This document shows, one piece after another, positions 2,310 through 50,041 of a stretch of DNA of 64,000 nt. Position numbers and translations under genes: made by a program. How positions within the stretch are numbered: the first letter of the stretch is position 1; each line of letters starts with the position of its first letter. The stretch comes from a virus: positions 32,001 through 96,000 of IMG/VR virus record IMGVR_UViG_3300045988_131721. One strand, given 5' to 3'. The notes beneath the pieces are model-generated. The model was not told the DNA's origin, made no database searches, and saw nothing but the letters and a program-made list of their open reading frames with translations.

Positions 2310-2362
2310 CATAGGTAATTTTTATAAAGCTTATGTTAATACAGTAATATAAGGTGGTAAAT
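2310..2362 (+). promoter_or_regulatory. Class II phage promoter cassette, copy 1
   Basis: CATAGGTAATTTT, 12 nt, GTTAATA, CAG, TAATATAAGGTGG. Same geometry as 11 other copies. Confidence 0.55.
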
Positions 2363-2450
2363 ATGAAAAACTTAAAGTTTAGGGCATGGGATAAAGAATA
2401 AAAAGAATGGATGGAACAAAAAATTATTATTAATGAAAAGGAGAGAAAGA
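2363..2450 (+). pseudogene. Relic of a YopX-like gene (N-terminus only)
   Basis: MKNLKFRAWDKE-stop. KFRAWDK is the characteristic YopX-family N-terminus. The remainder is out of frame and truncated. Confidence 0.4.
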
Positions 2451-2451
2451 T

Positions 2452-3333
2452 ATGAAAGGATATAAAGTATTTAATTCAGATTGGACTTGCAGAGGTTTCC
2501 AATATAAAGTAGGAGAAACATATAAATATGAAGGAAAAATAAGTATATGTGAAACAGGATTCCATTTTTGTAAAAAACTAATTGATTGTTTTAATTATTA
2601 CACTTTTGACCCAGAAAACAAAGTAGCTATAATAGAAGCTACTGGTGAAGTTAAAGAAAGTAATTATTCAAATAATAAATGTGTAACAAATGAAATAAAA
2701 ATAATAAGAGAATTAAACTGGCATGAAGTATTAGATATGGTTAATTTTAATAAAGGTAACACAGGTATTAAAAACACAGGTAGTTATAATTCTGGTAATT
2801 ACAATACTGGTATTAAAAACACAGGCGATTATAATTCTGGAGATTATAATACTGGTGACTTTAATTCTGGTGATTACAATACTGGTAAATTTAATTCTGG
2901 TAGATTTAATACTGGTAAGTTCAATGCAGGAAATTATAACAGAGGCAGTTTTAACATTGGAGATTGTAATTTAGGCAATAAAAAAGCAGGATGCTTTTGT
3001 ACTGATGATAAATATGAAACAATTAAATTATTTAATAAAGAGAGTGATTGGACATTAAACACATGGAAGGATAGTCATGCATTCAGAATAATGAATAATT
3101 ATTTTGAATTAACTTTATGGATTAATGAATATAAAATGACAGATGAAGAAAAAGAAAAACATCCAGATTATAAAGTTGCTAGAGGTTATTTAAAAGAATT
3201 AAGTTATGCAGAGGCATGGAAAAATATGTGGAATCATATAAATGATAAAGAAAAAGAGGTATTTACTTTATTACCTAACTTCGATAAAGATATCTTTAAA
3301 GAAATAACTGGAATAGATATAGAAGAAAATTAA
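2452..3333 (+). CDS. Pentapeptide-repeat protein with conserved N-terminal KVF..DW.CRGFQY..G..Y...CE.GFHFC domain
   Basis: About 13 consecutive 5-residue units (GSYNS GNYNT GIKNT GDYNS GDYNT GDFNS GDYNT GKFNS GRFNT GKFNA GNYNR GSFNI GDCNL). The N-terminal domain resembles one I recall as DUF7666; this needs verification. Confidence 0.6.
   Translation: MKGYKVFNSDWTCRGFQYKVGETYKYEGKISICETGFHFCKKLIDCFNYYTFDPENKVAIIEATGEVKESNYSNNKCVTNEIKIIRELNWHEVLDMVNFNKGNTGIKNTGSYNSGNYNTGIKNTGDYNSGDYNTGDFNSGDYNTGKFNSGRFNTGKFNAGNYNRGSFNIGDCNLGNKKAGCFCTDDKYETIKLFNKESDWTLNTWKDSHAFRIMNNYFELTLWINEYKMTDEEKEKHPDYKVARGYLKELSYAEAWKNMWNHINDKEKEVFTLLPNFDKDIFKEITGIDIEEN
2752..2979 (+). repeat. 15-nt-period coding tandem repeat (pentapeptide repeats)
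   Basis: Repeated AAYWSYGGTRAYTWY-like units encoding residues 101-176 of the 2452-3333 ORF. Confidence 0.8.
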
Positions 3334-3417
3334 AGGATTAAGAAAAGTTAATAAAAATAATTAATAAAAAGTATTGACAATATAAATAAAAGTAAAAACG
3401 AAATATTCACAAATAAA

Positions 3418-3882
3418 TTGGAAGAGTTGATATTGGAGGAAGTAAAGGAAAAAGTTGAAAAATTAAAAGGACTTGATGTATTAGAGGTTACTTTGAAATT
3501 AACATCTGAAAAACTATATGAATATATAGATACGAATATAGGAGATGCTAAACATTTTACATTATTAGCTAAGTTAGATGGAAATTATAATATATCAATA
3601 CTGTATTATTACAAAAATAAGATTATACAAGCAGTGACTACAGAAAAAAATACTGGAGCAATTGACATTTATACTCTATTAAGAATATGTCTCTTACAAA
3701 ATACTAATACACCTTCAGTTGAATTTACAATTCATAAATGTGAACTTCATGGAAAAGAGACATTAGACCCATCTGAACTTTCTGAATTGAACAGCTTATT
3801 AAGTTGCGAACACGAATCTTGCGAATCATGTGATTATTATGATATTGAAGAAGTTAATTTATTAGATGATAAAAATAATTAA
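3418..3882 (+). CDS. Hypothetical protein with C-terminal Cys motif (CEHESCESCDYYD)
   Basis: Long ORF. The start is uncertain: TTG with no clear RBS. A TTGACA at 3374 has no good -10. Confidence 0.45.
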   Translation: MEELILEEVKEKVEKLKGLDVLEVTLKLTSEKLYEYIDTNIGDAKHFTLLAKLDGNYNISILYYYKNKIIQAVTTEKNTGAIDIYTLLRICLLQNTNTPSVEFTIHKCELHGKETLDPSELSELNSLLSCEHESCESCDYYDIEEVNLLDDKNN

Positions 3883-3947
3883 TAAGGGTTATTTTTAATT
3901 AGTTTATGTTAATATATAAGTATAAATTAATAAAGGAGGAATATAAT

Positions 3948-4304
3948 ATGAATAAATATTTAATTGAAATGGCAGACGGAGGTATAATAGATATATGCGA
4001 CGATATAGAATGCGATGATTACGGTTGTCCTACTTGTGGATTTAATGGACACTATACAAATCATATGAAAATAACATTAGAAAAGAATATTTTAGAAATA
4101 GAATTTGGAGGAATGTATACATTTGATATACCAGATTACTTGGATATAATGAAGATATTTACTCAAAATAATGACAATATCAAAAATATGACAGAAGAAG
4201 AGTTTATAGACTTTCTTAAAGAAGAGTTAGATAATTTAACTTGTTATGAAGTAGAAATGAGTAGAAAAGAAAAAATATATAAAAAAGATAAAGAAATATG
4301 GTAA
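3948..4304 (+). CDS. Hypothetical protein with N-terminal Cys cluster (CDDIECDDYGCPTCG)
   Basis: ATG 8 nt after AAGGAGGA. A degenerate class II-like box lies upstream (AGGGTTATTTTT...ATGTTAATATATAAG). Confidence 0.6.
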   Translation: MNKYLIEMADGGIIDICDDIECDDYGCPTCGFNGHYTNHMKITLEKNILEIEFGGMYTFDIPDYLDIMKIFTQNNDNIKNMTEEEFIDFLKEELDNLTCYEVEMSRKEKIYKKDKEIW

Positions 4305-4333
4305 TGTATAAGTATAAATAAAGAGGTATAAAT

Positions 4334-4558: not shown

Positions 4559-4574
4559 TAAAGGAGGAATTATT

Positions 4575-5282: not shown

Positions 5283-5345
5283 AAATAATTAATAAAATAC
5301 ATTGACAAATAATTTAGTTATGATATAATTATTAGTATAAGGAGG
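5281..5345 (+). promoter_or_regulatory. Class I sigma-A-type promoter
   Basis: AATAATTAATAAA 5284-5296, TTGACA 5302-5307, 16-nt spacer, TGATATAAT with TATAAT at 5324-5329, TAT-TAGTATAAGGAGG leader. Confidence 0.75.
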
Positions 5346-6485: not shown

Positions 6486-6488
6486 CAT

Positions 6489-9697: not shown

Positions 9698-9750
9698 TAA
9701 AATGCATTGACAAATAACATAGCTGTGATATACTTATTTGTATAAGGAGG
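9687..9750 (+). promoter_or_regulatory. Class I sigma-A-type promoter
   Basis: AATAATTAATAAA 9689-9701, TTGACA 9707-9712, 16-nt spacer, TGATATACT with TATACT at 9729-9734. Followed by an RBS and a 5-codon ORF (9758-9775). Confidence 0.65.
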
Positions 9751-9777: not shown

Positions 9778-9837
9778 CATAGGTAATTTTAACAACAGTT
9801 TTGATAATACTATAATAAGAAGGTGATTAAAATGTAA
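9778..9837 (+). promoter_or_regulatory. Class II phage promoter cassette, copy 2, with ATG-TAA start-stop
   Basis: CATAGGTAATTTT, 12 nt, GATAATA, TAATAAGAAGGTGATTAAA, ATG TAA (9832-9837). Confidence 0.55.
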
Positions 9838-9906
9838 ACTTATTGAAATACCTCGACAAAAATAGTAAGGGATTAAAAATAATTAATAAAAGGGAGAGTG
9901 AGAAAT

Positions 9907-10821: not shown

Positions 10822-11544
10822 ATGGTGATAATAAGATATAGGACAAATAAAGATATGGATGTTTATTTTCCAAAATATAATTGGACTTTTTATAATACAA
10901 ATTATATTACTTTTAAAAAAGGTGAAATATTTTGCCCATATGAAAGAAGGTTTTGTAGAGTAGGTTATTTAGGAGAAGGAAAATATAAAATGAGTGAAAA
11001 AGGTAAACATACGAGAACTGGGTCTGTTTGGATGAGTATGTTAAATAGATGTTATAATGAAAAACTTCATATAAAACATCCAAGTTATAAAAAATGTCAT
11101 GTTAGTGAAGAATTTCATAATTTTCAAAACTTTGGTGATTGGGATAATGATAACTATTATGAAATTGAAGGTGAAAGAATGCATTTAGATAAAGATATAT
11201 TAATAAAGCATAACAAAATTTATTCACCAGAAACTTGTATATATGTACCACAAACTATAAATGGTTTATTTACCAAACGTGATAAAGGTAGAGGTGAGTC
11301 GTGTATCGGTACAAGTCCTCTTAAAAATGGTAAATATCAAGTGAACTGTTGTTTACTTAATCCAGAAACTGGTAAGTCTAAAAATGAATATTTGGGATTA
11401 TATGAAACGCAAGAAAAAGGATTTGAGATTTATAAATATTATAAAGAGAGAAATATTAAACAAGTTGCTGATTATTACAAAAATATAATTCCACAGGAAT
11501 TATATCAAGCTATGTATTTTTATGAAGTAGAAATTGATGATTAA
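10822..11544 (+). CDS. Homing-endonuclease-like protein, family 1, copy 2 (N-terminus disrupted)
   Basis: Full family-1 block set. The conserved N-terminal segment GVKIDRIGETGVNTFGSK is in frame upstream, but the ATG at 10766 is out of frame by 1 nt in a G4 run. Confidence 0.6.
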   Translation: MVIIRYRTNKDMDVYFPKYNWTFYNTNYITFKKGEIFCPYERRFCRVGYLGEGKYKMSEKGKHTRTGSVWMSMLNRCYNEKLHIKHPSYKKCHVSEEFHNFQNFGDWDNDNYYEIEGERMHLDKDILIKHNKIYSPETCIYVPQTINGLFTKRDKGRGESCIGTSPLKNGKYQVNCCLLNPETGKSKNEYLGLYETQEKGFEIYKYYKERNIKQVADYYKNIIPQELYQAMYFYEVEIDD

Positions 11545-13143: not shown

Positions 13144-13209
13144 AATAATTAATAAATTTTATAATACAAAGAGGGAGGAATCAATCCTCCTAGAAAGGAG
13201 AATAAAGAT

Positions 13210-13413: not shown

Positions 13414-15300
13414 ATGAATAGACATTGCAAAGTTTGTGGTCGAAAGTTAACTGATGGAGATAATATAAAAAGGGAATTATGTAATAAGCATTATTTACAG
13501 ATAAAAAAGTATGGATTTAATTTAGATGATAATCAAAGAAACGAATATGATTTAAATGAATATGAAATAAAAGGCAACATGGCTTATTTGAAATTATATG
13601 ACAATTTTCAAGAGGAATTAAATGAGAAAGCAATTATAGATGATTGTACAGTTGAATTAATAAATAAATATAGATGGGATAAAAATAGAACGTGTATAAC
13701 AACAAATATAAATGGTAAAATAATACCTCTTGAAAATTATATTCTTAATACTAATGAAAAGGTTAATTTTAAAAATGGAAATAATTTAGATTTTAGATTA
13801 AATAATTTAATGGTAATTCACAAAGATGTAAAAGATAAAAAAATAGACAAAAGAAAAAAAGGTAAAATTGATATAATAAGTTATGGATTTTCAAGTCAAC
13901 AAGTTACAGGAAGTAGTTGGGGAGTTTATTATGATAATATTAAAGAAAATAAAAGAGATATGTTACTTATTGAATGTGGGTTAGTACAAGGTAAAGATGT
14001 AGTTACCGATTATAACAATAATAAAAAAATGATTTCTAATATACCGTTTGAAAGATGTGGGCAAATGATATTTTCACACTGTCATCTTGACCACTTAATG
14101 AATGCTGTAGCATCAATAAAAAAAGGATTTAATGGTATAGTATATATGACTAAAACTCAAAGAATATTAGCTGAAAAATTATTGTTAGATGGTGCTTATA
14201 TTCATGAAAGAAATGTAAAAGAATTAAAAAATAAAGGTAAATCACCAGAATTATTTTATGATGAGTCTTCAGTATATTTATTTTTAAATAAAGTTAAAAT
14301 TGTAGAAATGAATGAAAAAATAAAAATCAATAATAATATTACATTTAGATTTAGAAATAACTCTCATGTATTAGGTGCTACTCAAATTGAATTATGGATT
14401 ACTAAGCCTAATAATCAAATAAAACATATTTTATATACAGGTGATTTAGGTACAAATCACAATTTTGAATTCCAACCTTTTCTAAAACAAAATGAGATAA
14501 TCAAGTCATGTGACTTAGCATTATTTGAAAGTACATACTCAGATATAAAAAGAAGTTTTACTAAAAAAGATTGTATAATAGAAAGAGAAGATTTTAAAAA
14601 TACATTATTAGAAACTATAAAAAACAAGTCAAGATGTTTAGTACCGACTTTCTCTTTTAGCAGAGGACAAATGTTAATGTGTTGGATTTATGATTGGTTT
14701 AAGGATTTAGAAGATAATTTTCAAGTTATAATAGATAGTAAACTTTTCCAAGAAATTAATAATGCATATACTCAAATATTAGAAGATGAAGAATTAGAAT
14801 ATTGGTCAACAGTTATTTCATGGGATAAATTTAAATTTGTTGGAGATTATGAAGAAACATTAGAATTATCTACTAAAAACGATGGTATACCAAGAATAAT
14901 TTTATCTTCTTCCGGATTTATGGAGGCTGGTAGGGTAAGAACTTGGGCAAGTAAAATACTAAATAATAAAGATGATACAATATGTTTTGTTGGTTATTCA
15001 TCGGCAAATAGTCTTGCAAATAAAATACAAAATCAAAAAGAAGACGTATTTATTATAGATGGTATAAAATGTATTAGGAGATGTAATATAAAAATATACA
15101 GAACATTTTCATCTCATATACAATATGATGAACTTTTAGATTATTTTTATAGATTAAAAACAAACAAAATAATACTTCATCATGGTGAATTAGATTCAAA
15201 AAATGAATTTAAAAAATATGCTACAAAATTATTAAGAGAAAAAGGAATAACTACTAAAATAATATGTACAGATAAAGATAATACTGAATTTAGTTTATAG
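13414..15300 (+). CDS. Metallo-beta-lactamase-fold nuclease (beta-CASP-like) with N-terminal zinc finger and degenerate HNH-like segment
   Basis: HxHxDH motif FSHCHLDH, later GDLG, ESTYSD, PTFSFSRGQ and LHHGE. N-terminus CKVCG...CNKH, and YILNTNEKVNFKNGNNLDFRLNNL resembling HNH_3 without the His. Confidence 0.65.
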   Translation: MNRHCKVCGRKLTDGDNIKRELCNKHYLQIKKYGFNLDDNQRNEYDLNEYEIKGNMAYLKLYDNFQEELNEKAIIDDCTVELINKYRWDKNRTCITTNINGKIIPLENYILNTNEKVNFKNGNNLDFRLNNLMVIHKDVKDKKIDKRKKGKIDIISYGFSSQQVTGSSWGVYYDNIKENKRDMLLIECGLVQGKDVVTDYNNNKKMISNIPFERCGQMIFSHCHLDHLMNAVASIKKGFNGIVYMTKTQRILAEKLLLDGAYIHERNVKELKNKGKSPELFYDESSVYLFLNKVKIVEMNEKIKINNNITFRFRNNSHVLGATQIELWITKPNNQIKHILYTGDLGTNHNFEFQPFLKQNEIIKSCDLALFESTYSDIKRSFTKKDCIIEREDFKNTLLETIKNKSRCLVPTFSFSRGQMLMCWIYDWFKDLEDNFQVIIDSKLFQEINNAYTQILEDEELEYWSTVISWDKFKFVGDYEETLELSTKNDGIPRIILSSSGFMEAGRVRTWASKILNNKDDTICFVGYSSANSLANKIQNQKEDVFIIDGIKCIRRCNIKIYRTFSSHIQYDELLDYFYRLKTNKIILHHGELDSKNEFKKYATKLLREKGITTKIICTDKDNTEFSL

Positions 15301-15328: not shown

Positions 15329-16804
15329 ATGTATTATAATGAGGAACATAAAAATATTGTAGAGAAAAGAGGTGATGGTTATACCTATATCGGGAGTTAT
15401 AAATGTAACGAAGTAACATTAGATGGCAAAAATAAAAATGGCAAACAAAATTATATAAGAGTAAAATGTCCGTATTGTGGTAGTGAGTATGACATAAAGT
15501 TAAGTAGTTTTAAATCGGGTAGTCAATGTGCTAATTGTTGTAATAAATATGAAAACTCGTTTGCTTATCATATTCAAATTGAATTAGAAGAATCCCTTAA
15601 TAAATATTGGGATTGGAGCAATAATGAAGAAAATCCATATTTAATATATAAAAATAGTACTAAAAAAGTTAATATAAAATGTACTAAAATTAATTATCAT
15701 GGTGATTATATTATCACACCTAATAGTTTTTATAGAGGCACAAGATGTCCGTATTGTGTTGGTAAAAAAGTTCATCCTAAAGATTCATTTGGTCAATGGT
15801 TGATTGCCACTTATGGAGATAATGCAATAGAAAAATATTGGTCACCTAAAAATATAGTTGACCCATTTGAAATTTCACCACAAAGTAATAAAAAAGTTTG
15901 GATATTATGTCAAGAAAAAGACTATCATAATGATAATGGTGGATATTTGGTAATCCCGTATAGTTTTTATAGAGGCACAAGATGTCCTTATTGTAGTCGT
16001 ACAAATGGTAAAGTGCATCCAAAAGATAGTTTCGGGCAATGGTTGATAAATGTATTCGGCGAAGATGCGATAGATAAATATTGGTCATCTAAAAATAATG
16101 TTAACCCATTTGAAATAGCTCCAAATACTCATAGAAAAATTTGGATACTGTGTCAAGATAAAAATTATCATAATAATGAAGGAGGTTATAAAACGACAGC
16201 CGAAAAATTTCATCATGGTAGAAGATGTCCATATTGCAATAAAAATAGTGGTAAAGTACATCATAAAGATAGTTTTGGTTCGCTATATCCAGAAAAGGCT
16301 AAGTATTGGAGTAAGAATAATAAAAAGTCATCTTTTGAGATAAGTCCTAAAAGCAATCGAAAACATAAATTCATATGTGAAAAATGTGGTGAAGAATTTG
16401 AAAGAAGTTTAGATAATTTAAATGTAAAAGATTTAGGTGTAGTTTGCAATGATTGTAGAAGTTCACAATTAGAGCAGTTAACAAAAGAAATATTAGACAA
16501 ATACTACATAAAATATTACAGAGAATATAGTTATTCGGACTTAATAGGTGTAGGTAATGGATATTTGAGATTTGACTTCTATTTACCAGATTATAATACT
16601 CTAATTGAATGTCAAGGACAGCAACATGAAGAATGGATAGAGACATGGATAACAAAAGATAATTTTGAGTTGATAAAAATACATGACCAACGTAAGAAGG
16701 ATTATTGTAAAAGGAATGGAATAAAACTAATAGAAATATGGTATTATGAAATAAATGATGTAGAAGAAATTATAAAGAAAGAATTAAATCTAGAAAATAA
16801 TTAA
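15329..16804 (+). CDS. Homing-endonuclease-like protein, family 2 (repeated treble-clef zinc ribbons plus C-terminal Vsr/PD-(D/E)XK-like nuclease)
   Basis: Four or more repeats of KDSFG...YWS.KN...PFEISP.S..K.W..C....YH.....RCPYC. C-terminus LRFDFYLPDYNTLIECQGQQH. Paralog of 19999-21252. Confidence 0.6.
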   Translation: MYYNEEHKNIVEKRGDGYTYIGSYKCNEVTLDGKNKNGKQNYIRVKCPYCGSEYDIKLSSFKSGSQCANCCNKYENSFAYHIQIELEESLNKYWDWSNNEENPYLIYKNSTKKVNIKCTKINYHGDYIITPNSFYRGTRCPYCVGKKVHPKDSFGQWLIATYGDNAIEKYWSPKNIVDPFEISPQSNKKVWILCQEKDYHNDNGGYLVIPYSFYRGTRCPYCSRTNGKVHPKDSFGQWLINVFGEDAIDKYWSSKNNVNPFEIAPNTHRKIWILCQDKNYHNNEGGYKTTAEKFHHGRRCPYCNKNSGKVHHKDSFGSLYPEKAKYWSKNNKKSSFEISPKSNRKHKFICEKCGEEFERSLDNLNVKDLGVVCNDCRSSQLEQLTKEILDKYYIKYYREYSYSDLIGVGNGYLRFDFYLPDYNTLIECQGQQHEEWIETWITKDNFELIKIHDQRKKDYCKRNGIKLIEIWYYEINDVEEIIKKELNLENN

Positions 16805-16856
16805 TAAACCTATTGACAAATAATTTGGTTATGATATAATGTATTTATAGGAAGGT
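16794..16856 (+). promoter_or_regulatory. Class I sigma-A-type promoter
   Basis: AATAATTAATAAA 16796-16808, TTGACA 16813-16818, 16-nt spacer, TGATATAAT with TATAAT at 16835-16840. Confidence 0.75.
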
Positions 16857-17563: not shown

Positions 17564-17624
17564 CATAGGTAATTTTATATGTGGTTATGTTAATATACTA
17601 ATATAAGAGGTGATTAAAATGTAA
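17564..17624 (+). promoter_or_regulatory. Class II phage promoter cassette, copy 3, with ATG-TAA start-stop
   Basis: CATAGGTAATTTT, 12 nt, GTTAATA, TAC, TAATATAAGAGGTGATTAAA, ATG TAA (17619-17624). Confidence 0.55.
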
Positions 17625-19571: not shown

Positions 19572-19633
19572 ATTGAAAATAATTAATAAAATTATAAAGA
19601 GGGATTAATTCCCTCTAGGAAGGAGTTGGTAAT

Positions 19634-19870: not shown

Positions 19871-19931
19871 CATAGGTAATTTTTTATAAGGAATTGTTAA
19901 TACGATAATATAAGAGGTGATTAAAATGTAG
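19871..19931 (+). promoter_or_regulatory. Class II phage promoter cassette, copy 4, with ATG-TAG start-stop
   Basis: CATAGGTAATTTT, 12 nt, GTTAATA, CGA, TAATATAAGAGGTGATTAAA, ATG TAG (19926-19931). Confidence 0.55.
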
Positions 19932-19998
19932 AATATATTAGTTATAAGATATAAATAAAAATAACAAATTAAAAATAATTAATAAAAAGGTGATTGAG

Positions 19999-21252
19999 AT
20001 GTATCAGAATGAGGAACATAAGAGAGGAGTAATTGAAAGGGGAGATGGTTACGAATATATAGGAAGTTATAAATTAAATGAAGTGACTATAGATGGTAAG
20101 AATAAAAAACATAATGCTACTTATATTAGAGTTAAATGTCCATATTGCAGAAGTGAATATGACGTGGCTTTGAGCAGTTTTGTAGGAAAATTAAAAACAA
20201 AATGTACCAATTGTTGCAATACTTATGAAAATTCTTTTGCTTATTATATTGAAAAAGAATTAAATGAAAAATTAGAGGATTATTGGGACTTTGAGGAGAA
20301 TGGAAGAAGAGGTATAAATCCTTATTGTGTAACTAAACATAATAGCAGTATTAAAATTTCAATTTGGTGTAAAAATAAGTGGTATCATGGTAGTTATTTT
20401 ACTACCACATCACATTTTACAGAAAATAAAAGATGCCCTTACTGTGCTAATCAAAAGGTTCACCCGTTAGATAGTTTTGGACAATATTTAATTAATACCT
20501 ATGGAAAAGATGCCATAAAAAAATATTGGAGTGATAAAAATATAAATTCCCCTTTTAAAATAAGCAAAGGAAGTGGAAAACCAATATATTTATATTGTCA
20601 AGATAAAGATTATCATAATGATTATGGAGGTTATTCTGTAGTTCCATATCAATTTATGAGAGGGGATAGATGTCCATATTGTACACATAAATCGGGAAAA
20701 GTTCATCCTAAAGATTCATTTGGAAACCTGTATCCCGAAAAGGCTAAATATTGGTCACCCAATAATAAAAAATCACCTTTTGAAGTAACTTCTAGAAGTG
20801 GTAAAAAATATAAATTTATTTGTGAAAAATGTGGTGAAGAGTTTGAAAGAGATTTAGCGAATCTAAATAGAAATAATATTGGAATTGTGTGTAAAAAATG
20901 TAATTCTTCACAATTAGAAACAAAAACTAAAAATATATTAGAAAAACATAATATTAAATATGAAATAGAAAAATCATTTTTTAATTTATATGGTGTAGGT
21001 GGTAAATTATTGAGATTTGATTTTTATTTATCAGATTATAATTTACTAATTGAATGTCAAGGAACTCAACATAAATCATGGCAGAAAACTTGGGTGACAA
21101 AAGAAGATTTTGAAAGACAATTAGAACATGACAAAAGAAAGAAACAATATGCTAAAGAAAATAATATCGATTTATTAGAAATTTGGTATTATGATATAGA
21201 TAATATAGAAAATATATTGATGCATAGATTGAATTTAAATAAAAATAATTAA
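19999..21252 (+). CDS. Homing-endonuclease-like protein, family 2 (zinc-ribbon repeats plus Vsr/PD-(D/E)XK-like nuclease)
   Basis: N-terminus MYQNEEHKRGVIERGDGYEYIGSY, zinc-ribbon repeats, C-terminus LRFDFYLSDYNLLIECQGTQH. Collinear with 15329-16804. Confidence 0.6.
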   Translation: MYQNEEHKRGVIERGDGYEYIGSYKLNEVTIDGKNKKHNATYIRVKCPYCRSEYDVALSSFVGKLKTKCTNCCNTYENSFAYYIEKELNEKLEDYWDFEENGRRGINPYCVTKHNSSIKISIWCKNKWYHGSYFTTTSHFTENKRCPYCANQKVHPLDSFGQYLINTYGKDAIKKYWSDKNINSPFKISKGSGKPIYLYCQDKDYHNDYGGYSVVPYQFMRGDRCPYCTHKSGKVHPKDSFGNLYPEKAKYWSPNNKKSPFEVTSRSGKKYKFICEKCGEEFERDLANLNRNNIGIVCKKCNSSQLETKTKNILEKHNIKYEIEKSFFNLYGVGGKLLRFDFYLSDYNLLIECQGTQHKSWQKTWVTKEDFERQLEHDKRKKQYAKENNIDLLEIWYYDIDNIENILMHRLNLNKNN

Positions 21253-22359: not shown

Positions 22360-22467
22360 TAAATAGTGGAGAAATTAATCTCCACTCCCCTGTGGGAGTG
22401 ATTAAATGTTTGGAGCGTGTAATAGAAAACCTAAACAAATTATAGATTTAAAGAGGAGGATTAATAT

Positions 22468-27671: not shown

Positions 27672-27731
27672 CATAGGTAATTTTTGGTGAATTAATGTTA
27701 ATACGGTAATATAAGAGAGGAGTGATAGAAA
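27672..27731 (+). promoter_or_regulatory. Class II phage promoter cassette, copy 5
   Basis: CATAGGTAATTTT, 12 nt, GTTAATA, CGG, TAATATAAGAGAGGAGTGA. Confidence 0.55.
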
Positions 27732-32849: not shown

Positions 32850-32907
32850 TATAGGTAATTTTGAAAGTAAAATTGTTAATACGATAATATAGGAAGGAGA
32901 TGATATT
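32850..32907 (+). promoter_or_regulatory. Class II phage promoter cassette, copy 6 (drives a family-1 endonuclease gene)
   Basis: TATAGGTAATTTT, 12 nt, GTTAATA, CGA, TAATATAGGAAGGAGATGATATT, ATG. Confidence 0.55.
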
Positions 32908-33690
32908 ATGGGAAGAGATAAAGTTGATAGAACAGGGGAAAGGAGTTGTAATAATTTCGGTAGTGAAATGATAATTGTTAAATGTAATAATGCACGTGAC
33001 ATAGATGTATATTTTCCTCAATATGATTGGATTGCTAGGAATAAACAATATAATCATTTTAAAAATGGTAAAATTAGTTGTCCATATGAACCTAGAGTAT
33101 TTGGAGTAGGATATATTGGTGAAGGTGAATATAAGGTATGGGAAAATTGTAAGTCTACTAGAGCCTATAAAAGTTGGAATCATATGTTAGAAAGGTGTTA
33201 TTCTGATAAATTTCATAAAAGAAATCCTACTTATGAAGATTGTGAGATTGATGAATCATTTCATAATTTTCAAAATTTTGGATATTGGGATGAAAACAAT
33301 TACTATCAAATCGAAGGAGAAAGAATGCATTTAGATAAGGATATACTCCACAAAGGAAACAAAATATATAGTCCCGAAACTTGTATTTATGTACCACAAA
33401 CTATAAATTCATTATTTATTAAAAGACAAAATGATAGAGGAGAATCAGCTATTGGTACAAGTCCTCATAAATGTGGGAAATATACAGTGTATTGTAGTTT
33501 AATCAATCCAGAAACAGGTAAATCAAAGAGTGAATATTTAGGTTTATATGACACACAAGAAAAAGGATTTGAGATTTATAAATACTATAAAGAAAGGAAT
33601 ATAAAACAAGTTGCAGATTATTATAAAGGACAGATACCCGAAAAGTTATATATAGCTTTATATAATTACGAAGTTGAAATAGACGATTAA
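32908..33690 (+). CDS. Homing-endonuclease-like protein, family 1, copy 4
   Basis: Full family-1 block set. Lies immediately upstream of the DNA polymerase gene. Confidence 0.65.
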   Translation: MGRDKVDRTGERSCNNFGSEMIIVKCNNARDIDVYFPQYDWIARNKQYNHFKNGKISCPYEPRVFGVGYIGEGEYKVWENCKSTRAYKSWNHMLERCYSDKFHKRNPTYEDCEIDESFHNFQNFGYWDENNYYQIEGERMHLDKDILHKGNKIYSPETCIYVPQTINSLFIKRQNDRGESAIGTSPHKCGKYTVYCSLINPETGKSKSEYLGLYDTQEKGFEIYKYYKERNIKQVADYYKGQIPEKLYIALYNYEVEIDD

Positions 33691-33708: not shown

Positions 33709-35505
33709 ATGTCAAAAAAAACCAGATTAATATTTTATGACTTTGAAGTATTTAAAGAGGATTGGTTAGTTTGTTTAACCGATTATTCTACAAAACAAGA
33801 ATGTGTTATTGTAAATGACAGAAATAAATTAATAAGGCTTTATAATAAATTCAAAGACAATACTATATTTATTGGATTTAACAATAGACATTATGACGAC
33901 GTGATATTTAAAGGTATATTAATGAATATGAATCCAAAAGAAATCAATGATAAATTAATAGAAGGGAAAAAACCTCACGAAATATCTAGAACGTTTAATA
34001 AAATTAAACTATATAGTTATGACACTTTAATTTTAAATAAAAGTTTAAAACAACTTGAATTATTTATGGGTAGTAATATAAAAGAAACAGATGTGCCATT
34101 TGATATAGATAGAAAACTAACAATGAAAGAAATAGAAGAAACAATTAAATATTGTAAACATGACGTTAGTGAGACAATAAAAGTATTTGAAGCTACAATA
34201 AATGATTTTAAAGCACATAAATCTTTAATTGAAAAATTTAATTTACCTATCAATTCATTTTCCAAAACTAAAGCTAAACTTAGTGCTGAAATATTAGAAG
34301 CTGAAAGACAACATGGAGTTACGGATGGGTTAGAATATGAATTTTTACCAACTATAAAATTGAATAAATATAAATATATTCAAGATTGGTTTGATACTCA
34401 TAGAGAATATACTTATGTAAATGAAAAAGGAACTAATAAAAAAATGCAACTGGAAACTGAAGTATTTGGTATAAATACAATATATGGCTTTGGAGGATTA
34501 CATTCTGCTAGAAAAAAATATTTTCACAAAGTAGAAGAAAATGAATTAATAGTTCACAGTGATGTTGCAAGTTTTTACCCTTCCATAATGCGTAATTATA
34601 AATTATTAAGTAGAGCAGTACATAAACCCGAAAAATTTAATGAAATTATGGATGAACGTCTACGCTTAAAAGCTTTAGGTGACAAAAAAGGACAAGCACC
34701 CCTAAAAATAGTCATCAACGCTACATACGGAATATGCAAAGATAAATGGAGTAAAATGTTTGATGAAAAAAGAGCAAATGAAATATGTATAAATTGTCAG
34801 TTATTTTTGACAGATTTACTTGAGAAATTAGAAACAAGTAATCTTGATTTAGAACTTATACAGGCAAATACAGATGGTATAATCGTTTTATTAAGAAACA
34901 AAAATGAATTTGAACAATATAAAGCAATTTGTCAAGAATGGGAAATACGTACTGGATTTAAACTAGAACATGATTTAATTAAAAACATAATGCAAAAAGA
35001 TGTAAACAATTATATATTTGAATTTGAAAATGGTAAACTTGAAAGAAAAGGAGCATATGTGAAAGAATATTCACTTATAGATAATAATTTATCTATAATC
35101 ACAGATGCTGTGGTAGAATATTTATTACATGAAACTCCTGTAGAAGAAACAATTAATAATTGTGACGAACTCATAAAATTCCAAATGTGTTGTAAGATAG
35201 GAAGTACATACAATTACATGATGTGGGGTGATAAAATATTAAATACAAAATGTAATAGAGTATTCGCAACAACGAAAGATTTACCAGGATTATCAAAAGT
35301 AAAATGTAATTTTAAAAATAAAAAAGGTGAAGTAGCAGATAAAATAGAAAAAGTAGCTAGCACACCAGAAAAAGTTATGATATACAATGAAGAAGTAATA
35401 GATAAATCAGTGTTAGAAGTTTTACCAGAATTAGATAAACAATTTTATATTGATTTGGCTAAAAAAAGACTTAAAGATTTTGGTATAAAATTTATTAAAT
35501 CATAG
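33709..35505 (+). CDS. Family B DNA polymerase with 3'-5' exonuclease domain
   Basis: Exo I FYDFEVF, Exo II GFNNRHYDD, Exo III YCKHDV. Pol motif A SDVASFYPSIM, motif B KIVINATYG, motif C ANTDGI. Confidence 0.8.
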   Translation: MSKKTRLIFYDFEVFKEDWLVCLTDYSTKQECVIVNDRNKLIRLYNKFKDNTIFIGFNNRHYDDVIFKGILMNMNPKEINDKLIEGKKPHEISRTFNKIKLYSYDTLILNKSLKQLELFMGSNIKETDVPFDIDRKLTMKEIEETIKYCKHDVSETIKVFEATINDFKAHKSLIEKFNLPINSFSKTKAKLSAEILEAERQHGVTDGLEYEFLPTIKLNKYKYIQDWFDTHREYTYVNEKGTNKKMQLETEVFGINTIYGFGGLHSARKKYFHKVEENELIVHSDVASFYPSIMRNYKLLSRAVHKPEKFNEIMDERLRLKALGDKKGQAPLKIVINATYGICKDKWSKMFDEKRANEICINCQLFLTDLLEKLETSNLDLELIQANTDGIIVLLRNKNEFEQYKAICQEWEIRTGFKLEHDLIKNIMQKDVNNYIFEFENGKLERKGAYVKEYSLIDNNLSIITDAVVEYLLHETPVEETINNCDELIKFQMCCKIGSTYNYMMWGDKILNTKCNRVFATTKDLPGLSKVKCNFKNKKGEVADKIEKVASTPEKVMIYNEEVIDKSVLEVLPELDKQFYIDLAKKRLKDFGIKFIKS

Positions 35506-35569
35506 GTAATTTTTAAATAACTTTAGTTAATATAGTAATATAAGGAGGCGATAAAAATGTAAAATGTAA
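35501..35569 (+). promoter_or_regulatory. Class II phage promoter cassette, copy 7, with duplicated ATG-TAA start-stop
   Basis: CATAGGTAATTTT overlaps the polymerase TAG stop. AGTTAATA, TAG, TAATATAAGGAGGCGATAAAA, ATG TAA A ATG TAA (35557-35569). Confidence 0.55.
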
Positions 35570-38460: not shown

Positions 38461-39237
38461 ATGGGGAGTAAAATTGACAGAACTGGTGAGAAAAATATTA
38501 ATAATTTTGGAAGTGAAATGGTTATTGTTGAATACAAAAAATACTCTGATATAGATGTTTATTTCCCAGAATATGACTGGACAACTAAAAATAATACATA
38601 CCAAAATTTTAAAAATGGTAAAATCAAATCACCTTATGATAAAAGCGTATTTGGTGTTGGATATTTAGGGGAGGGAGAATATGAGAGTAGAGAAAATGGT
38701 AAGCTTACTAAAGTTTATGCTACTTGGTGTCATATGTTAGAAAGGTGTTATTATGAAAAATATCACAAAAGGTATCCTACATATATAGATTGCAAAGTAA
38801 GTGAAGAATGGCATAACTTTCAAAATTTTGCTAAATGGTATGAAAACAATTATTATGAAGTTGAAGGAGAAATAATGTGTTTAGATAAGGATATTTTGAT
38901 AAAACATAATAAAATATATAGTCCAGAAACTTGTATTTTTGTGCCACAAACAATTAATACTTTATTTGTTAAAAATAATAAAAATCGAGGCAATTCAGTT
39001 ATAGGTACAAGTCCTATGAATGGTAAATATATGGTGACTTGTAGTATGTTCGACTTTAAAACTGGTAAGTCTAAAAATGAATATTTAGGAAGGTATAAAA
39101 CACAAGAAAAAGCATTTGAAGTATACAAATATTATAAAGAAAAGAATATTAAACAAATAGCAGATTATTTTAAAGAACAAATACCTATTCAACTATATAA
39201 TACTTTATATAATTATATAGTTGAAATTACAGATTAG
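38461..39237 (+). CDS. Homing-endonuclease-like protein, family 1, copy 5
   Basis: Full family-1 block set. Starts 4 nt after the methyltransferase stop. Confidence 0.65.
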   Translation: MGSKIDRTGEKNINNFGSEMVIVEYKKYSDIDVYFPEYDWTTKNNTYQNFKNGKIKSPYDKSVFGVGYLGEGEYESRENGKLTKVYATWCHMLERCYYEKYHKRYPTYIDCKVSEEWHNFQNFAKWYENNYYEVEGEIMCLDKDILIKHNKIYSPETCIFVPQTINTLFVKNNKNRGNSVIGTSPMNGKYMVTCSMFDFKTGKSKNEYLGRYKTQEKAFEVYKYYKEKNIKQIADYFKEQIPIQLYNTLYNYIVEITD

Positions 39238-39300
39238 AAATAATTAATAAATTAAAAAAACTATTGACATTAATCACCTCATGTGTTATTATCTATATAA
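39238..39300 (+). promoter_or_regulatory. Class I sigma-A-type promoter
   Basis: AATAATTAATAAA 39239-39251, TTGACA 39263-39268, 17-nt spacer, TGTTATTAT with TATTAT at 39286-39291. Confidence 0.6.
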
Positions 39301-40433: not shown

Positions 40434-40465
40434 TCACCATCTTTACAGATGGTGAATTTTTATTA
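40434..40465 (+). terminator. Rho-independent terminator
   Basis: TCACCATCT-TTAC-AGATGGTGA followed by ATTTTTATT. Confidence 0.8.
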
Positions 40466-40467: not shown

Positions 40468-40522
40468 CATAGGTAATTTTAGACTAACAATTGTTAATAC
40501 TGTAATATAAGGAAGGAGGTAG
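40468..40522 (+). promoter_or_regulatory. Class II phage promoter cassette, copy 8
   Basis: CATAGGTAATTTT, 12 nt, GTTAATA, CTG, TAATATAAGGAAGGAGG. Confidence 0.55.
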
Positions 40523-40528
40523 TTGATT

Positions 40529-41466: not shown

Positions 41467-41521
41467 TCAAAGTTAGGTATTCTACGACTAAAATCCAAAT
41501 CAAAGTTAGGTATTCTGCGAC
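41467..41521 (+). repeat. Two 22-nt direct repeats (iteron-like), 33-nt period
   Basis: TCAAAGTTAGGTATTCTACGAC (41467-41488) and TCAAAGTTAGGTATTCTGCGAC (41500-41521). Followed by about 55 nt of almost pure A/T. Confidence 0.75.
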
Positions 41522-41677: not shown

Positions 41678-41795
41678 ATAGTTTGAAAAAATAATTGCTC
41701 TTTGATTATTTTAGAAAACGAAAAAGGGTGGTGGAATTTTAATAAAATTTTCATTCATTAAATATTAATATACTAATATAAGGAAAGGAATTGAT

Positions 41796-42578
41796 GTGAA
41801 AATGGTAGCAAAAATTAATAGAAAAGGAGAAAAGAATTATAACACTTTCGGAAGTGAAATGATAATTACAGAATATAGAGAACGTATGGACATTGATATA
41901 TATTTTCCAGAATATGATTGGACTTTTAAAGGAGCAACATATCAATCTTTCAAAAACGGTAGAATTGCATGTCCTTATGAAAGAAGATATTATGGAGTTG
42001 GTTGTATTGGAGATGGAGAATACAAAGTAAGTGAAAACGGTAAACTAACTAAGGTTTATAACACTTGGCATCATATGTTGAGAAGATGTTATGATGAAAA
42101 ATACCACAAAAAACATCCTACGTATATTACTTGTGAAGCATCTGAGGAATGGTATAATTTTCAAAACTTTGCAGAATGGTACGAGGAAAATTATTATGAG
42201 GTAGATGGTGAAAGAATGGAATTAGATAAAGATATAATAATTAAGCATAACAAAATATATAGTCCAGAAACTTGTATTTTTGTACCTCAAACAATAAATT
42301 TATTATTTGTTAAATGCGATAGGAGTAGAGGGGAATCAGTTATTGGAACAAGCCCATATCGAGATAAATATAGAGTAAATTGTTGTTTAATCAATCCTCG
42401 AACTGGTAAATCAAAGAGTGAATATTTAGGGTTATACGACACTCAAGAGAAAGCGTTTGAAGTGTATAAATATTACAAAGAAAAGAATATAAAAGAAGTA
42501 GCTGACTACTTCAAAAGACAAATACCAAGGGAATTGTATTATAGTATGTGTACTTATGAAGTAGAAATAGATGATTAA
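41796..42578 (+). CDS. Homing-endonuclease-like protein, family 1, copy 6
   Basis: GTG start. Full family-1 block set. Preceded by a partial class II leader (ATTAATATACTAATATAAGGAAAGG). Confidence 0.65.
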   Translation: MKMVAKINRKGEKNYNTFGSEMIITEYRERMDIDIYFPEYDWTFKGATYQSFKNGRIACPYERRYYGVGCIGDGEYKVSENGKLTKVYNTWHHMLRRCYDEKYHKKHPTYITCEASEEWYNFQNFAEWYEENYYEVDGERMELDKDIIIKHNKIYSPETCIFVPQTINLLFVKCDRSRGESVIGTSPYRDKYRVNCCLINPRTGKSKSEYLGLYDTQEKAFEVYKYYKEKNIKEVADYFKRQIPRELYYSMCTYEVEIDD

Positions 42579-42602: not shown

Positions 42603-42660
42603 CATAGGTAAATTTTACTCATTAATTGTTAATATATTAAATATAAGGGGAGTGATGTAA
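42603..42660 (+). promoter_or_regulatory. Class II phage promoter cassette, copy 9, with ATG-TAA start-stop
   Basis: CATAGGTAAATTT, 12 nt, GTTAATA, AAATATAAGGGGAGTG, ATG TAA (42655-42660). Confidence 0.5.
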
Positions 42661-43523: not shown

Positions 43524-43583
43524 CATAGGTAATTTTTATAAAAGTTTTGTTAATATAGTAATATGAAGGAGGTGATAATGTGA
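43524..43583 (+). promoter_or_regulatory. Class II phage promoter cassette, copy 10, with ATG-TGA start-stop
   Basis: CATAGGTAATTTT, 12 nt, GTTAATA, TAG, TAATATGAAGGAGGTGATA, ATG TGA (43578-43583). Confidence 0.55.
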
Positions 43584-46452: not shown

Positions 46453-46519
46453 CATAGGTAATTTTTATATCAGTTTTGTTAATACACTACTATAAGAAAA
46501 GGAGGTGATAATATTGTAA
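46453..46519 (+). promoter_or_regulatory. Class II phage promoter cassette, copy 11 (start-stop position reads TTG-TAA)
   Basis: CATAGGTAATTTT, 12 nt, GTTAATA, CAC, TACTATAAGAAAAGGAGGTGATAATA, TTG TAA. Confidence 0.5.
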
Positions 46520-47619: not shown

Positions 47620-48342
47620 ATGATTATAGTTAGATATAAAAAAGCAAAAAATATAGATGTTTATTTTCCTCAATACGATTGGATTGCCAAAAATAAAACT
47701 TATCAGAATTTTAAAAACGGTCAAATAAGTTGTCCATATGAGAAAAGATATTTTATGATTGGCTATTTAGGTGAAGGAGATTATAAATCAAGAGAAAATG
47801 GTAAAGATACTAGGGTTTATGATACTTGGGTTAATATGATGCAGAGATGTTATGATTCTAAATATCACGAAAAATATCCTACTTATAAAGATTGTGGTGC
47901 ATCTGATGAATTTCATAATTTTCAAAATTTTGGAATGTGGGATGGTGATAATTTCTATCAAGTTGAAGATGAAGTAATGTGTCTTGATAAAGATATTTTA
48001 ATTAAACATAACAAAATCTATTCACCCGATACTTGCATTTATGTGCCTAAAACAATTAATAGTTTATTTACTAAGAGACAAAATGATAGAGGTGTCTCGG
48101 CTATTGGAACAACTCCTACTGAAAATGGGAAATACGAGGTACAATGTTGTTTAATTAATCCTGAGACTGGAAAATCAAAACAAGAACACCTAGGTACTTA
48201 TGATACCGAGTTAGAAGCCTTTGAAGTTTACAAATATTATAAAGAAAAAAATATTAAAATGGTTGCAGACTATTATTTTGGAAAAATATCTGAAAGACTT
48301 TACAATGGTATGTATAATTATATAGTAGAAATAGACGATTAA
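47620..48342 (+). CDS. Homing-endonuclease-like protein, family 1, copy 7 (N-terminus disrupted)
   Basis: Full block set. The conserved IDRIGEKRFNNFGSE segment is in frame upstream, but the ATG at 47564 is out of frame by 1 nt in an A6 run. Confidence 0.6.
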   Translation: MIIVRYKKAKNIDVYFPQYDWIAKNKTYQNFKNGQISCPYEKRYFMIGYLGEGDYKSRENGKDTRVYDTWVNMMQRCYDSKYHEKYPTYKDCGASDEFHNFQNFGMWDGDNFYQVEDEVMCLDKDILIKHNKIYSPDTCIYVPKTINSLFTKRQNDRGVSAIGTTPTENGKYEVQCCLINPETGKSKQEHLGTYDTELEAFEVYKYYKEKNIKMVADYYFGKISERLYNGMYNYIVEIDD

Positions 48343-48375
48343 TAATTATAATGAATAAGGGAGGAGGAAATATGT

Positions 48376-48678
48376 ATGTTAAAAGAAAATAAAAATAAAC
48401 AAGTAAAAATATATGAACTTGCAGAAGATTTTTCTGTAATATTAATGAGAGAAGACGTGGATAGAGCTTATAATTGGACGCTTTATTATGACGAAGAAAA
48501 GCCCGATGAAAACAATATCATAGAAGGTATTCAATATGTTGAATGTTGTTGTGACACGAATAAAGAATTAACATTTAATACAGCGTTAGAATATTTAATG
48601 GATGTAACTAGATTTATAGACGTACATTTTGATAGGATAGTTGAAGGCGAGGAATACGACGACCCTTGGGAAGATTAA
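48376..48678 (+). CDS. Hypothetical acidic protein
   Basis: 100-aa ORF with RBS GGGAGGAGG. Confidence 0.5.
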   Translation: MLKENKNKQVKIYELAEDFSVILMREDVDRAYNWTLYYDEEKPDENNIIEGIQYVECCCDTNKELTFNTALEYLMDVTRFIDVHFDRIVEGEEYDDPWED

Positions 48679-48705
48679 ATCCTATTCATTTAATTAAAAA
48701 AGGAG

Positions 48706-49203
48706 GTGATTATTATACCAAATAAAAGTAATAAAATAGGTGCTAAATTTGAAAATAGATTAACAAAACAATTTGAAAAATATAGAAAAGAAGGAAAGGC
48801 TTATATATTTAAGATTCCAACTGAATTTATAGTATTAAGAAAAGGAGCTAAAATCGTATCGGCTTTTCCTAAAAAACAATCACCTTGTCTGGATTACATA
48901 GGTATATTACCTAATGGAAAAAGCATAGTATTTGAGGCTAAAACAACAGCTAACAAAACTTCTTTTCCTCTTTCAAATATAAAAGACTATCAATATGATT
49001 TAATTGATGAGATTCAAAACTATGCAAATAATGTATTCTTTATAATAGAATTTAGAGAATTTAAAGAAGTGTATTTAGTGAGTGGGCTAGCAATCAAAAA
49101 GTTTAAAGAAAATAACAAGCGTAAGAGTATACCATATAAAGAGTTTAAAAATATAGGTATATTAATGAACGATTTAGATGTATTAAAATATATAAATTAT
49201 TAA
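48706..49203 (+). CDS. recU: RecU-type Holliday junction resolvase
   Basis: GAKFENRLTKQFEKYRKEGKAYIFKIPTEF...CLDYIGILPNGKSIVFEAKTT matches the RecU pattern (fE..i......A.i.K.pT...DY.G...G..i.FeAK.T). The start codon context is unusual. Confidence 0.7.
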   Translation: MIIIPNKSNKIGAKFENRLTKQFEKYRKEGKAYIFKIPTEFIVLRKGAKIVSAFPKKQSPCLDYIGILPNGKSIVFEAKTTANKTSFPLSNIKDYQYDLIDEIQNYANNVFFIIEFREFKEVYLVSGLAIKKFKENNKRKSIPYKEFKNIGILMNDLDVLKYINY

Positions 49204-49218
49204 TAAAGGAGAGATGTA

Positions 49219-49959
49219 ATGAGTAAATTTAAGATTGGTGATAAAGTGAGAATAAGAGAAGATTTAAATGAATATAATTTCCATGATATAATACCAGAAA
49301 TGTTAAAATATGCAGGGAAGGAATTTGAAATAATAGATATACGTTATAATGCTATCTTTGGCGAATGTTATGTGTTAAACGATGTTAATTATTTTTGGTA
49401 TGGAGATGCGTTAGAATTAGTAAATGAATCAGAAATTAAAATATTAGGTGTTGATTATACAACAAGCACATTAAAAATAGAAGAAAGTGTCTCACAAAAA
49501 GTAAGGGGATTTGAAATTGTGTCTAATGAATTTAGAAAACATCCAAATGTAGATATAAGAATACCTACACGTGCCACTAGTGAATCAGCAGGATATGATA
49601 TATCTACTCCAATAGATATTAAAATACCACCTCATGGTATATCCGAAGCAATACAAACAGATATCAAAGCATATATGTTATATAATGAATATTTGGAAAT
49701 AGTACCTAGAAGTAGCATTGGATTTAAAAAAGGATTAATGTTAGTAAATACATGTGGAATTATAGATAGTGATTATTATGGTAATCCAGATAATGATGGG
49801 AATATAGGGTTTAAATTTAAAAATTTAACAGATAAAACAGTAGAAATAAAAGCAGGAGAAAGAATTTTGCAAGGGATATTCAAGAAATATTTATTAGCAG
49901 ATGAAGATAATTGTAATATAATTAGAAAGAGTGGGATTGGTTCGTCGGGTACTAAATAA
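49219..49959 (+). CDS. dut: dUTPase with ~100-aa N-terminal GDKVRIREDL extension
   Basis: dUTPase motifs ATSESAGYD, PRSSIG, GIIDSDYYG, RILQGIF, GSSG. Confidence 0.85.
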   Translation: MSKFKIGDKVRIREDLNEYNFHDIIPEMLKYAGKEFEIIDIRYNAIFGECYVLNDVNYFWYGDALELVNESEIKILGVDYTTSTLKIEESVSQKVRGFEIVSNEFRKHPNVDIRIPTRATSESAGYDISTPIDIKIPPHGISEAIQTDIKAYMLYNEYLEIVPRSSIGFKKGLMLVNTCGIIDSDYYGNPDNDGNIGFKFKNLTDKTVEIKAGERILQGIFKKYLLADEDNCNIIRKSGIGSSGTK

Positions 49960-49983
49960 AAATAATTAATAAATTTTATAACG

Positions 49984-50041
49984 GATAGGTAATTTCTTTA
50001 TGCTATCCGTTAATATATAAGTATAGAAAGGACGTGATAAA
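49984..50041 (+). promoter_or_regulatory. Class II phage promoter cassette, copy 12 (variant, box embedded in a hairpin)
   Basis: GATAGGTAATTTC, 12 nt, GTTAATA, TAT, AAGTATAGAAAGGACGTGA. AACGGATAG...CTATCCGTT form an inverted repeat. Confidence 0.45.

Follow-up and report, generated by a model that had tools for sequence, protein, structure and literature searches.

Bipartite intergenic cassettes of a ~135-kb human-gut phage: a predicted second promoter class and its candidate phage sigma factors

What reads the twelve promoter-like cassettes that recur between positions 2310 and 50041 of an uncultivated phage genome? The DNA analysed, hereafter the window, is a stretch of 64,000 nucleotides (nt) covering positions 32,001 to 96,000 of IMG/VR virus record IMGVR_UViG_3300045988_131721. 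It has a GC content of 25% and carries a block of plus-strand genes from 1 to ~52000 and a block of minus-strand genes from 52000 to 64000. A first-pass annotation of the letters had described the cassettes as promoters with a non-canonical -35 box and proposed a second promoter class read by a phage sigma or activator. This proposal is supported, circumstantially, by sigma genes and by the placement and distribution of the motif. The cassettes, here called the M class, probably represent a second promoter class that one or more phage sigma factors would read, in a cascade resembling that of phage SPO1.

The pattern ATAGGTAA-N16-G(T/A)TAATA matches the window at exactly the twelve places that had been listed, all on the plus strand, whereas 100 dinucleotide-preserving shuffles contained no match to ATAGGTAA-N16-GWTAATA. 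With a weight matrix built from the twelve sites, the sites themselves score 26-48 bits and everything else, on both strands, at most 8 bits; the M class is sharply bounded, without weaker copies in the window. The spacing of 24 nt from the A of the upstream box (box 1) to the G of the downstream box (box 2) is likewise constant in 12 of 12 copies, as first described. Box 1 alone, with two mismatches allowed, gives 15 matches against 8.8 expected, which is not significant, and the signal is therefore carried by the bipartite geometry.

The refined consensus, drawn from 101 unique 33-mers (64 quasi-independent sites) in the window and its relatives, is CATAGGTAATTTTT-N10-TGTTAATAY-N3-TAATATAAG, followed by a variable Shine-Dalgarno (SD) sequence. 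The 64 quasi-independent sites come from related genomes whose loci had been collected through exact matches to the motif; across them the two boxes hardly vary and the 10-nt spacer shows no constraint. Orthologous sites have identities to the window of 0.945 (box 1), 0.746 (spacer), 0.93 (box 2) and 0.96 (leader). Such a pattern would be expected of two boxes that are contacted by protein.

The cassettes also have the geometry of sigma-70-type promoters, with AGGTAA-17-TTAATA (or GGTAAT-17-TAATAY) and a sequence-free spacer in 12 of 12 copies. Every copy lies in a gap between plus-strand open reading frames (ORFs), co-oriented with the genes, and in all twelve an SD sequence and then a start codon follow, 20-29 nt past box 2. 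Alternatively, the cassettes could be operators, replication or packaging sites, leader RNAs or the conserved ends of mobile endonuclease cassettes. They are clear paralogous copies that extend beyond the length of a promoter, several sharing ~100 nt that include the SD sequence, a start codon followed at once by a stop (start-stop) and a spacer, and the region is crowded with HNH endonuclease genes. However, strict co-orientation, location between genes and a constant distance to the SD sequence and start codon fit a promoter, the cassettes lack dyad symmetry, and only two of the twelve (19871 and 32850) directly precede an endonuclease gene. Rfam holds no family for the cassettes, and folding of six of them with their leaders gave structures no better than those of shuffles (z-scores -1.25 to +1.5), which argues against an RNA element. 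Spread by duplication is, moreover, compatible with promoter function. We regard these non-promoter readings as improbable, and the cassettes are very probably promoters of some kind that does not use a sigma-A -35 element.

Five sigma-A-type promoters on the plus strand, all noticed at first pass and all near-consensus, provide a standard for comparison. Those at 747..774, 5302..5329 and 16813..16840 (each TTGACA-16-TGaTATAAT) match at 12 of 12 positions and carry the TG; those at 9707..9734 (TTGACA-16-TGaTATACT, 71 nt 5' of the M promoter at 9778) and 39264..39292 (TTGACA-17-TGtTATTAT, preceding a DndB-like gene at 39304) match at 11 of 12, the last starting at 39264 rather than at 39263 as first given. 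A generic sigma-70 scan showed no enrichment over shuffles in the AT-rich DNA of the window. The M leader begins about where the leader of the host-type promoters begins. The 17-nt leader TAATATAAGGWGGTGAT that the two classes were thought to have in common proved looser than claimed, with only five window matches at two or fewer mismatches, three of them within M cassettes; its TAATATAAG part is conserved. Similarly, the proposed base-for-base alignment of TTAATA with TATAAT fits the leader distance, but the TG of box 2 lies one base closer than in TGnTATAAT, which makes TGnTAATAY an equally good -10 register. Read as TGnTAATAY, the element has T at -7 in 48% and C in 48% of unique sites; read as TTAATA, it lacks an A at -11.

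The genes behind the M sites encode two Rha-family proteins, an AAA_24 ATPase, a DHH phosphoesterase, a DnaB-like helicase, a primase, a DNA polymerase (phrog_1252), ThyX, NrdD, NrdG, RecU and a dUTPase. This is a typical middle or delayed-early set, serving replication, recombination and nucleotide metabolism. The weight matrix found no M site on either strand of the window's minus-strand late block, which encodes tail proteins, two lysins and a holin. Beyond the window, a locus from a human gut sample (L107) is 100% identical to window positions 1-3391 and extends 7.5 kb further upstream; these 7.5 kb hold seven sigma-A-type promoters and no M copy, the first M copy downstream being that at 2310. 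At the other end, window positions 64000-51576 have a 100% identical counterpart in a locus retrieved by way of a late protein, which places the window on ena:ERZ502024:NODE_13 (136,547 bp). A scan of IMG/VR with the exact pattern returned 95 stretches, nearly all from ~12 contigs (114-140 kb) with 73-99% identity to portions of the window. M is retained in at least ten relatives of ~135 kb; ten carry 9-15 detected copies each, and all ten share an M-free stretch of 51-58 kb whose sampled parts are tail, lysis and terminase genes. Thus M sites precede replication genes and are absent both from the 7.5-kb early region and from the structural-gene-bearing stretch of the ten relatives. Two IMG/VR stretches with one match each were set aside as chance: L073 has 37% GC and an unrelated context, and L058 has the same 33-mer core. 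When 20 kb was compared by megablast with 50,697 phage records, no match was returned, and there is no close cultured phage, only distant protein matches; a text search of the literature for the motif returned nothing relevant.

In bacterial genomes the exact pattern is essentially absent: among 185,579 species genomes (GTDB) only three stretches matched, of which two are single chance matches and one is a 2.8-kb phage-like contig of a metagenome-assembled genome. This near-absence indicates that M is not a host promoter class, and that candidate was rejected. It bears equally on the idea that an alternative sigma of the host (for example, a sporulation or stress sigma of a Firmicute) reads M. 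A -10-like GTTAAT does occur in promoters assigned to clostridial alternative sigmas, but the phage has sigmas of its own, and to our knowledge M fits no consensus of SigH, SigF, SigG, SigE, SigK, SigB, SigD or TcdR. Recognition by a host alternative sigma is therefore very improbable.

Pfam scans of most window ORFs (with a single scan for the HNH endonuclease paralogues) revealed neither a sigma nor MotA or AsiA, in agreement with the first-pass view that the window encodes no recognisable regulator. That view had pointed to the rest of the genome for a sigma-70-family, AsiA-like or MotA-like protein, and the first of these was found: two tandem, paralogous genes for small sigma-70-family proteins lie 4.8-3.7 kb ahead of window position 1. 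Families of the MotA or AsiA kind gave no match, a result that covers the window ORFs and the 7.5 kb upstream, with ~65 kb of the genome outside its scope. Small sigma 1 (L107:2746-3297, 183 amino acids (aa)) matches Sigma70_r2 with 32.7 bits (cutoff 24) and phrog_1740 at 6e-11; small sigma 2 (L107:3326-3892, 188 aa) matches Sigma70_ECF with 25.6 bits (cutoff 21.1) and phrog_1740, a family annotated 'RNA polymerase sigma factor', at 4e-12. A relative's copy matches TIGR02937 over its full length (7e-10), and the family profile matches sigma factors in the PDB (8x6g_H, 3.8e-6; 3mzy, 5e-4). An AlphaFold2 model has a mean predicted local distance difference test score (pLDDT) of 76, and the 50 PDB fold matches listed for it are all sigma factors or complexes of sigma with RNA polymerase (RNAP), although these matches are weak (best E 0.0096, template modelling score <0.35). 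The small sigmas carry both region 2 and region 4. At high scores the family is confined to this phage clade, and tblastn of a small sigma against the 50,697 phage records found no match.

In 9 of 9 genomes examined, TTGACT-17-TATAAT stands ~45 nt 5' of the first sigma gene, which suggests that the small sigma genes are expressed from a host-type early promoter. The -35 hexamer of this promoter sits in the 9-nt loop GGT(A/G)TTGAC of an inverted repeat of 9-11 bp (L107 2663-2690, ~4.9 kb 5' of window position 1), which is also present in L031, L077 and L099-L102. The arms of the repeat differ fully between genomes yet remain complementary (CTTGCCAAA/TTTGGCAAG, TTTACTAGAA/TTCTAGTAAA, TTCTCATTAGA/TCTAATGAGAA), so that a covarying hairpin surrounds the sigma-gene promoter.

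A third sigma-like protein is encoded in the relatives. This 395-aa protein has a helix-turn-helix (HTH) of the sigma region-4/GerE type (TIGR02937, 5e-7), matches phrog_5767 ('sigma factor') at 1e-76, and is conserved in phiCD211-like phages: phiCD211, phiCDIF1296T and LIBA2945 have a protein with 33-35% identity to it. Its gene follows an M site and immediately precedes the genes for terminase and head proteins. Conceivably this sigma-like, LuxR-type protein is the one that reads M, and the small sigmas serve another class. However, its gene stands downstream of an M promoter without a host-type promoter of its own and so could not be what initiates transcription from M. Genomes with an identical M consensus differ strongly in the recognition helix of its HTH (45% identity overall), and in PDB searches the HTH alone finds matches. 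The position behind M and the divergent helix led us to reject it as the M reader, a role in which it is quite improbable; dependent on M as its gene is, the protein is a poor candidate for reading M and the best candidate, and a reasonable one, for a regulator of late genes.

A search for enriched k-mers, in the window and across 245 upstream regions without M or sigma-A promoters, returned only Shine-Dalgarno words, and the remaining gaps, read by eye, showed no common late motif. On the minus strand, sites with an extended -10 only and no -35 (GTGTTATAAT, TGTGGTATAAT) occur at ~53140-53160 and 54390-54420 and precede lysis or late genes; they are unproven candidate late promoters. The terminase large subunit of one relative (L064 2183-2533) appears to be split into ORFs of 171 and 424 aa parted by ~350 nt of GC-richer, non-coding-looking sequence, which may be an intron.

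These observations can be assembled into a model for the transcription programme. The host sigma-A holoenzyme would transcribe the early region and with it the two small sigma genes, and one or both small sigmas would then replace sigma-A on the host core RNAP and direct it to the M promoters. Each M promoter would consist of the -35-side box CATAGGTAATTTTT, ~10 unconstrained bp and the -10-side box TGTTAATAY, with GTTAATA contacted by region 2 and the AGGTAAT within box 1 by region 4. The leader would comprise TAATATAAG and the Shine-Dalgarno sequence; transcripts would start within TAATATAAG, as those of the sigma-A promoters are predicted to do, and would carry a strong ribosome-binding site ~10 nt from their 5' end. 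M would drive the genes for replication, recombination and nucleotide metabolism and, in the relatives, the 395-aa sigma-like protein. Late genes would follow last, giving the order sigma-A promoters, phage sigma(s), M class, late genes.

The same promoters could instead be read by appropriation of the T4 MotA/AsiA type, in which sigma-A would recognise TGnTAATAY as an extended -10 and a phage activator bound to box 1 would replace the -35 contact. In roughly half of the sites box 2 combines TG with a hexamer resembling TAnnnT, the M leader and its distance are the same as in sigma-A promoters, box 1 is long (14 nt) for a -35 element, and the G(G/T)TAAT core present in both boxes, 21 nt apart, could suit a DNA-binding protein. 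Yet sigma-A requires a T at -7, a position at which half of the sites have C, the searches described above matched no MotA or AsiA family, and the phage has sigma-70-family proteins with regions 2 and 4 behind an early-type promoter, which makes direct recognition by a phage sigma the simpler reading. Appropriation seems unlikely, although it is a better contender than either the 395-aa protein or a host alternative sigma.

Several points nonetheless weigh against recognition of M by the phage sigmas. Box 1, at 14 nt, exceeds the usual -35 element, and because TG and TAATAY partly resemble a sigma-A extended -10, host sigma-A with an activator could serve. The apparent conservation of the boxes is inflated, since the related loci were retrieved by exact match. 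With two sigma paralogues, a third sigma-like protein and one new motif, at least one factor is left without an assigned target. Finally, we infer transcription starts at the cassettes and their temporal order from sequence, and the pairing of sigma with promoter from co-occurrence and genome layout.

The M copies differ in detail and in what they lead into (all cores are on the plus strand). The core at 2310..2342 (CATAGGTAATTTT-N12-GTTAATAC) stands directly 3' of a terminator-like hairpin (2248-2265) and is followed by an SD sequence at 2352 and an ATG at 2363 that opens a 12-codon mini-ORF (2363-2401); the next real gene, at 2452, encodes a DUF7666/pentapeptide protein. The core at 9778..9810, whose box 2 is GATAATAC, lies in tandem behind the sigma-A promoter at 9707; its SD sequence and ATG-TAA start-stop (9832-9837) precede a Rha-family gene at 9898/9907. 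Another ATG-TAA (17619-17624) follows the core at 17564..17596, before a Rha-like gene at 17673/17685. Behind the core at 19871..19903 and its ATG-TAG (19926-19931) come an HNH/DUF4379 endonuclease gene (19990), AAA_24 (21271) and the DHH phosphoesterase (22468). At 27672..27704, an ATG at 27732 opens a 12-codon mini-ORF (27732-27770) that is a frameshifted relic of the N-terminus of a DUF4379 endonuclease (relic 27732-27790), and the DnaB-like helicase (27811/27841) and primase (29414) lie downstream. The core at 32850..32882, a TATAGG variant, leads straight into an HNH endonuclease gene (32908) and then the DNA polymerase gene (33709). In the core at 35501..35533 the TAG within CATAGG is the stop codon of the polymerase gene; an ATG-TAA (35557-35562), small genes and then ThyX (36961) follow.

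The remaining five cores are similarly placed. That at 40468..40500 stands directly after an intrinsic-terminator-like hairpin (40434-40455) and leads straight into a gene at 40523 for a 313-aa protein of unknown function (phrog_9501). The core at 42603..42635, an AAATTT variant with one extra base in its leader, is followed by ATG-TAA (42655-42660) and then by the TTG start of the gene at 42662. NrdD (43697) and NrdG (45933) lie behind the core at 43524..43556 and its ATG-TGA (43578-43583), and genes from 46579 through RecU (48706) and the dUTPase (49219) lie behind the core at 46453..46485 and its TTG-TAA (46514-46519). The weakest copy, 49984..50016 (GATAGGTAATTTC ... CGTTAATAT), leads straight into small genes at 50042-51185.

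In total, seven of the twelve window cassettes contain an SD sequence, a start codon and an immediate stop (ATG followed by TAA, TAG or TGA; TTG followed by TAA), two more have the 12-codon mini-ORFs, and the real gene begins 40-110 nt beyond the start-stop with an SD sequence of its own. In the relatives, start-stops occur in 48 of 138 unique cassette contexts; the chance expectation is ~10%, although the copies are paralogues. The start-stop may be a 5' stabiliser of mRNA or a relic of cassette duplication. The phage also encodes, at 13414-15300, a 628-aa beta-CASP/RMMBL protein, a metallo-nuclease of the RNase J/CPSF-like type that may have a bearing on these leaders and on the turnover of mRNA.

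A further repeat, the 15-mer AAAATAATTAATAAA, has 36 copies in the window against 1.3 expected, 35 of them on the plus strand and 34 in the early/middle block (for example, at 728, 5282, 9687, 9876, 17657, 19972, 27814, 36257, 43669, 46438 and 49959). It overlaps or abuts stop codons and lies 9-20 nt before start codons, just 5' of ribosome-binding sites; it is also found upstream of promoters, at 4-12 nt (mostly 4-5) from the -35 in all five of the sigma-A type and at 0-10 nt from four of the M class. Candidate roles are those of an UP-like element, a translational enhancer or a recombination linker. A sixth sigma-A promoter has decayed at 3374-3400: a TTGACA preceded by AAAATAATTAATAAA has lost its -10, where TTGACAATATAAATAAAAGTATTATAAT is present in relatives. 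Eight HNH endonuclease paralogues of ~250 aa (phrog_953) are spread through the replication module (6-728, 10822-11544, 30435-31214, 32908-33690, 38461-39237, 41796-42578, 47620-48342 and 51196-51984), together with two DUF4379-type HNH/homing endonucleases (phrog_559; 15329-16804 and 19990-21252). The start-stops, the 15-mer and the crowding of endonuclease genes suggest that promoter, ribosome-binding site and start codon travel as a unit, which leaves the main reading as it is.

The last position of TGTTAATAY, which is C or T with the frequencies given above for -7 (C at 2342 and T at 43556, for instance), is constant within groups of orthologous sites: 14/14 C in three groups, and 13/13, 8/8 and 7/7 T in others. 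The two bases may mark two promoter subclasses, which would be of note given two paralogous sigmas, but the indication is weak as the relatives are close. On a bolder and, in our view, doubtful version of this idea, the cassettes would be portable expression modules whose start-stop parks a ribosome at the 5' end and so protects the mRNA against a 5'-exonuclease, with subclasses TGTTAATAC and TGTTAATAT, one for each paralogous sigma. If these two subclasses, constant at orthologous sites, are real, they would imply a finer temporal split.

Other short elements occur in the plus-strand block. A direct repeat, TCAAAGTTAGGTATTCT(A/G)CGAC, is present in two copies 11 nt apart (41467-41488 and 41500-41521) in a 330-nt gap and contains a TAGGTA core like that of box 1. 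A degenerate M-like cassette that lacks box 1 (TATTAATATACTAATATAAGGAAAGGA) lies at ~41745-41795, before the HNH gene at 41796. Short GC-rich hairpins whose loops are of the ATTAAT type (for example, GAGGGATTAATTCCCTC) are found at 2248-2265, 13174-13190, 19598-19616 and 22365-22401; they are intergenic, several stand directly before a Shine-Dalgarno sequence, and they may be terminators or elements of RNA processing or stability. A search for tRNA genes found none.

The analysis yields a clean promoter consensus and candidate cognate sigmas for a widespread, uncultivated clade of ~135-kb human-gut phages, which infects low-GC Firmicutes and is distantly related to the phiCD211-type phages of C. 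difficile. If the predicted pairing is true, it would offer a new orthogonal transcription part for AT-rich Gram-positive bacteria, and the temporal programme of such phages could be read from sequence alone.

How does this arrangement compare with known systems? Among C. difficile siphophages, phiCD211, phiCDIF1296T and LIBA2945 (~131-134 kb) are similar in genome size, and their DnaB-like helicase is ~25% identical to the one found here; in contrast, there is no nucleotide similarity, and these phages have no homologue of the two small sigmas. We know of no promoter class for phages of the phiCD211 type. The group-5 sigmas TcdR, BotR, TetR and UviA belong to low-GC Clostridia, some being phage- or plasmid-borne, and GTTAAT/GTTATA are the -10 elements reported for promoters assigned to TcdR/BotR-type sigmas (PMC4031146). 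The GTTAATA of box 2 is almost the same, whereas the -35 is TTTACA in TcdR/BotR promoters and AGGTAATTTT in M. Region 4 of the small sigmas reads ...ISK(M/T)L.VSS.(T/N)(V/I)N(K/R)K(V/I)N... in 8 of 8 aligned proteins and lacks the SRQ signature of group-5 region 4.2. Membership in the TcdR family was rejected on these grounds and for want of a TcdR-family match.

As in T4 middle promoters, a non-host box occupies the -35 position and is followed by a part similar to the host -10 and leader; in both phages early promoters are mixed with middle ones, and genes for homing endonucleases are numerous. Unlike T4, the phage encodes true sigma-family proteins and, within the DNA searched, no MotA or AsiA homologues, and box 2 is itself distinctive and invariant (TGTTAATAY) rather than a generic TAnnnT. 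The T4 MotA analogy drawn at first pass is thus the weaker part of that proposal; given that the phage has sigmas of its own, a closer model is offered by SPO1, in which gp28 takes the place of the host sigma. In SPO1, sigma-A serves early genes, the small phage sigma gp28 middle genes, and gp33/gp34 then late genes (PMC13401047). The layout here matches, with a predicted early sigma-70-family protein, distinct bipartite promoter-like cassettes before replication genes and a further candidate late factor, but there are two tandem paralogous small sigmas, and the system is known from sequence alone. The SPO1 middle consensus, AGGAGA/TTTnTTT, is unrelated to that of M, and the present system is analogous rather than homologous to SPO1. 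Sigma cascades are an established feature of phages, from SPO1 and T4 onwards, so no concept is overturned; most likely, the M class and its sigmas are a new sequence version of a timing circuit of a kind already familiar from phages.

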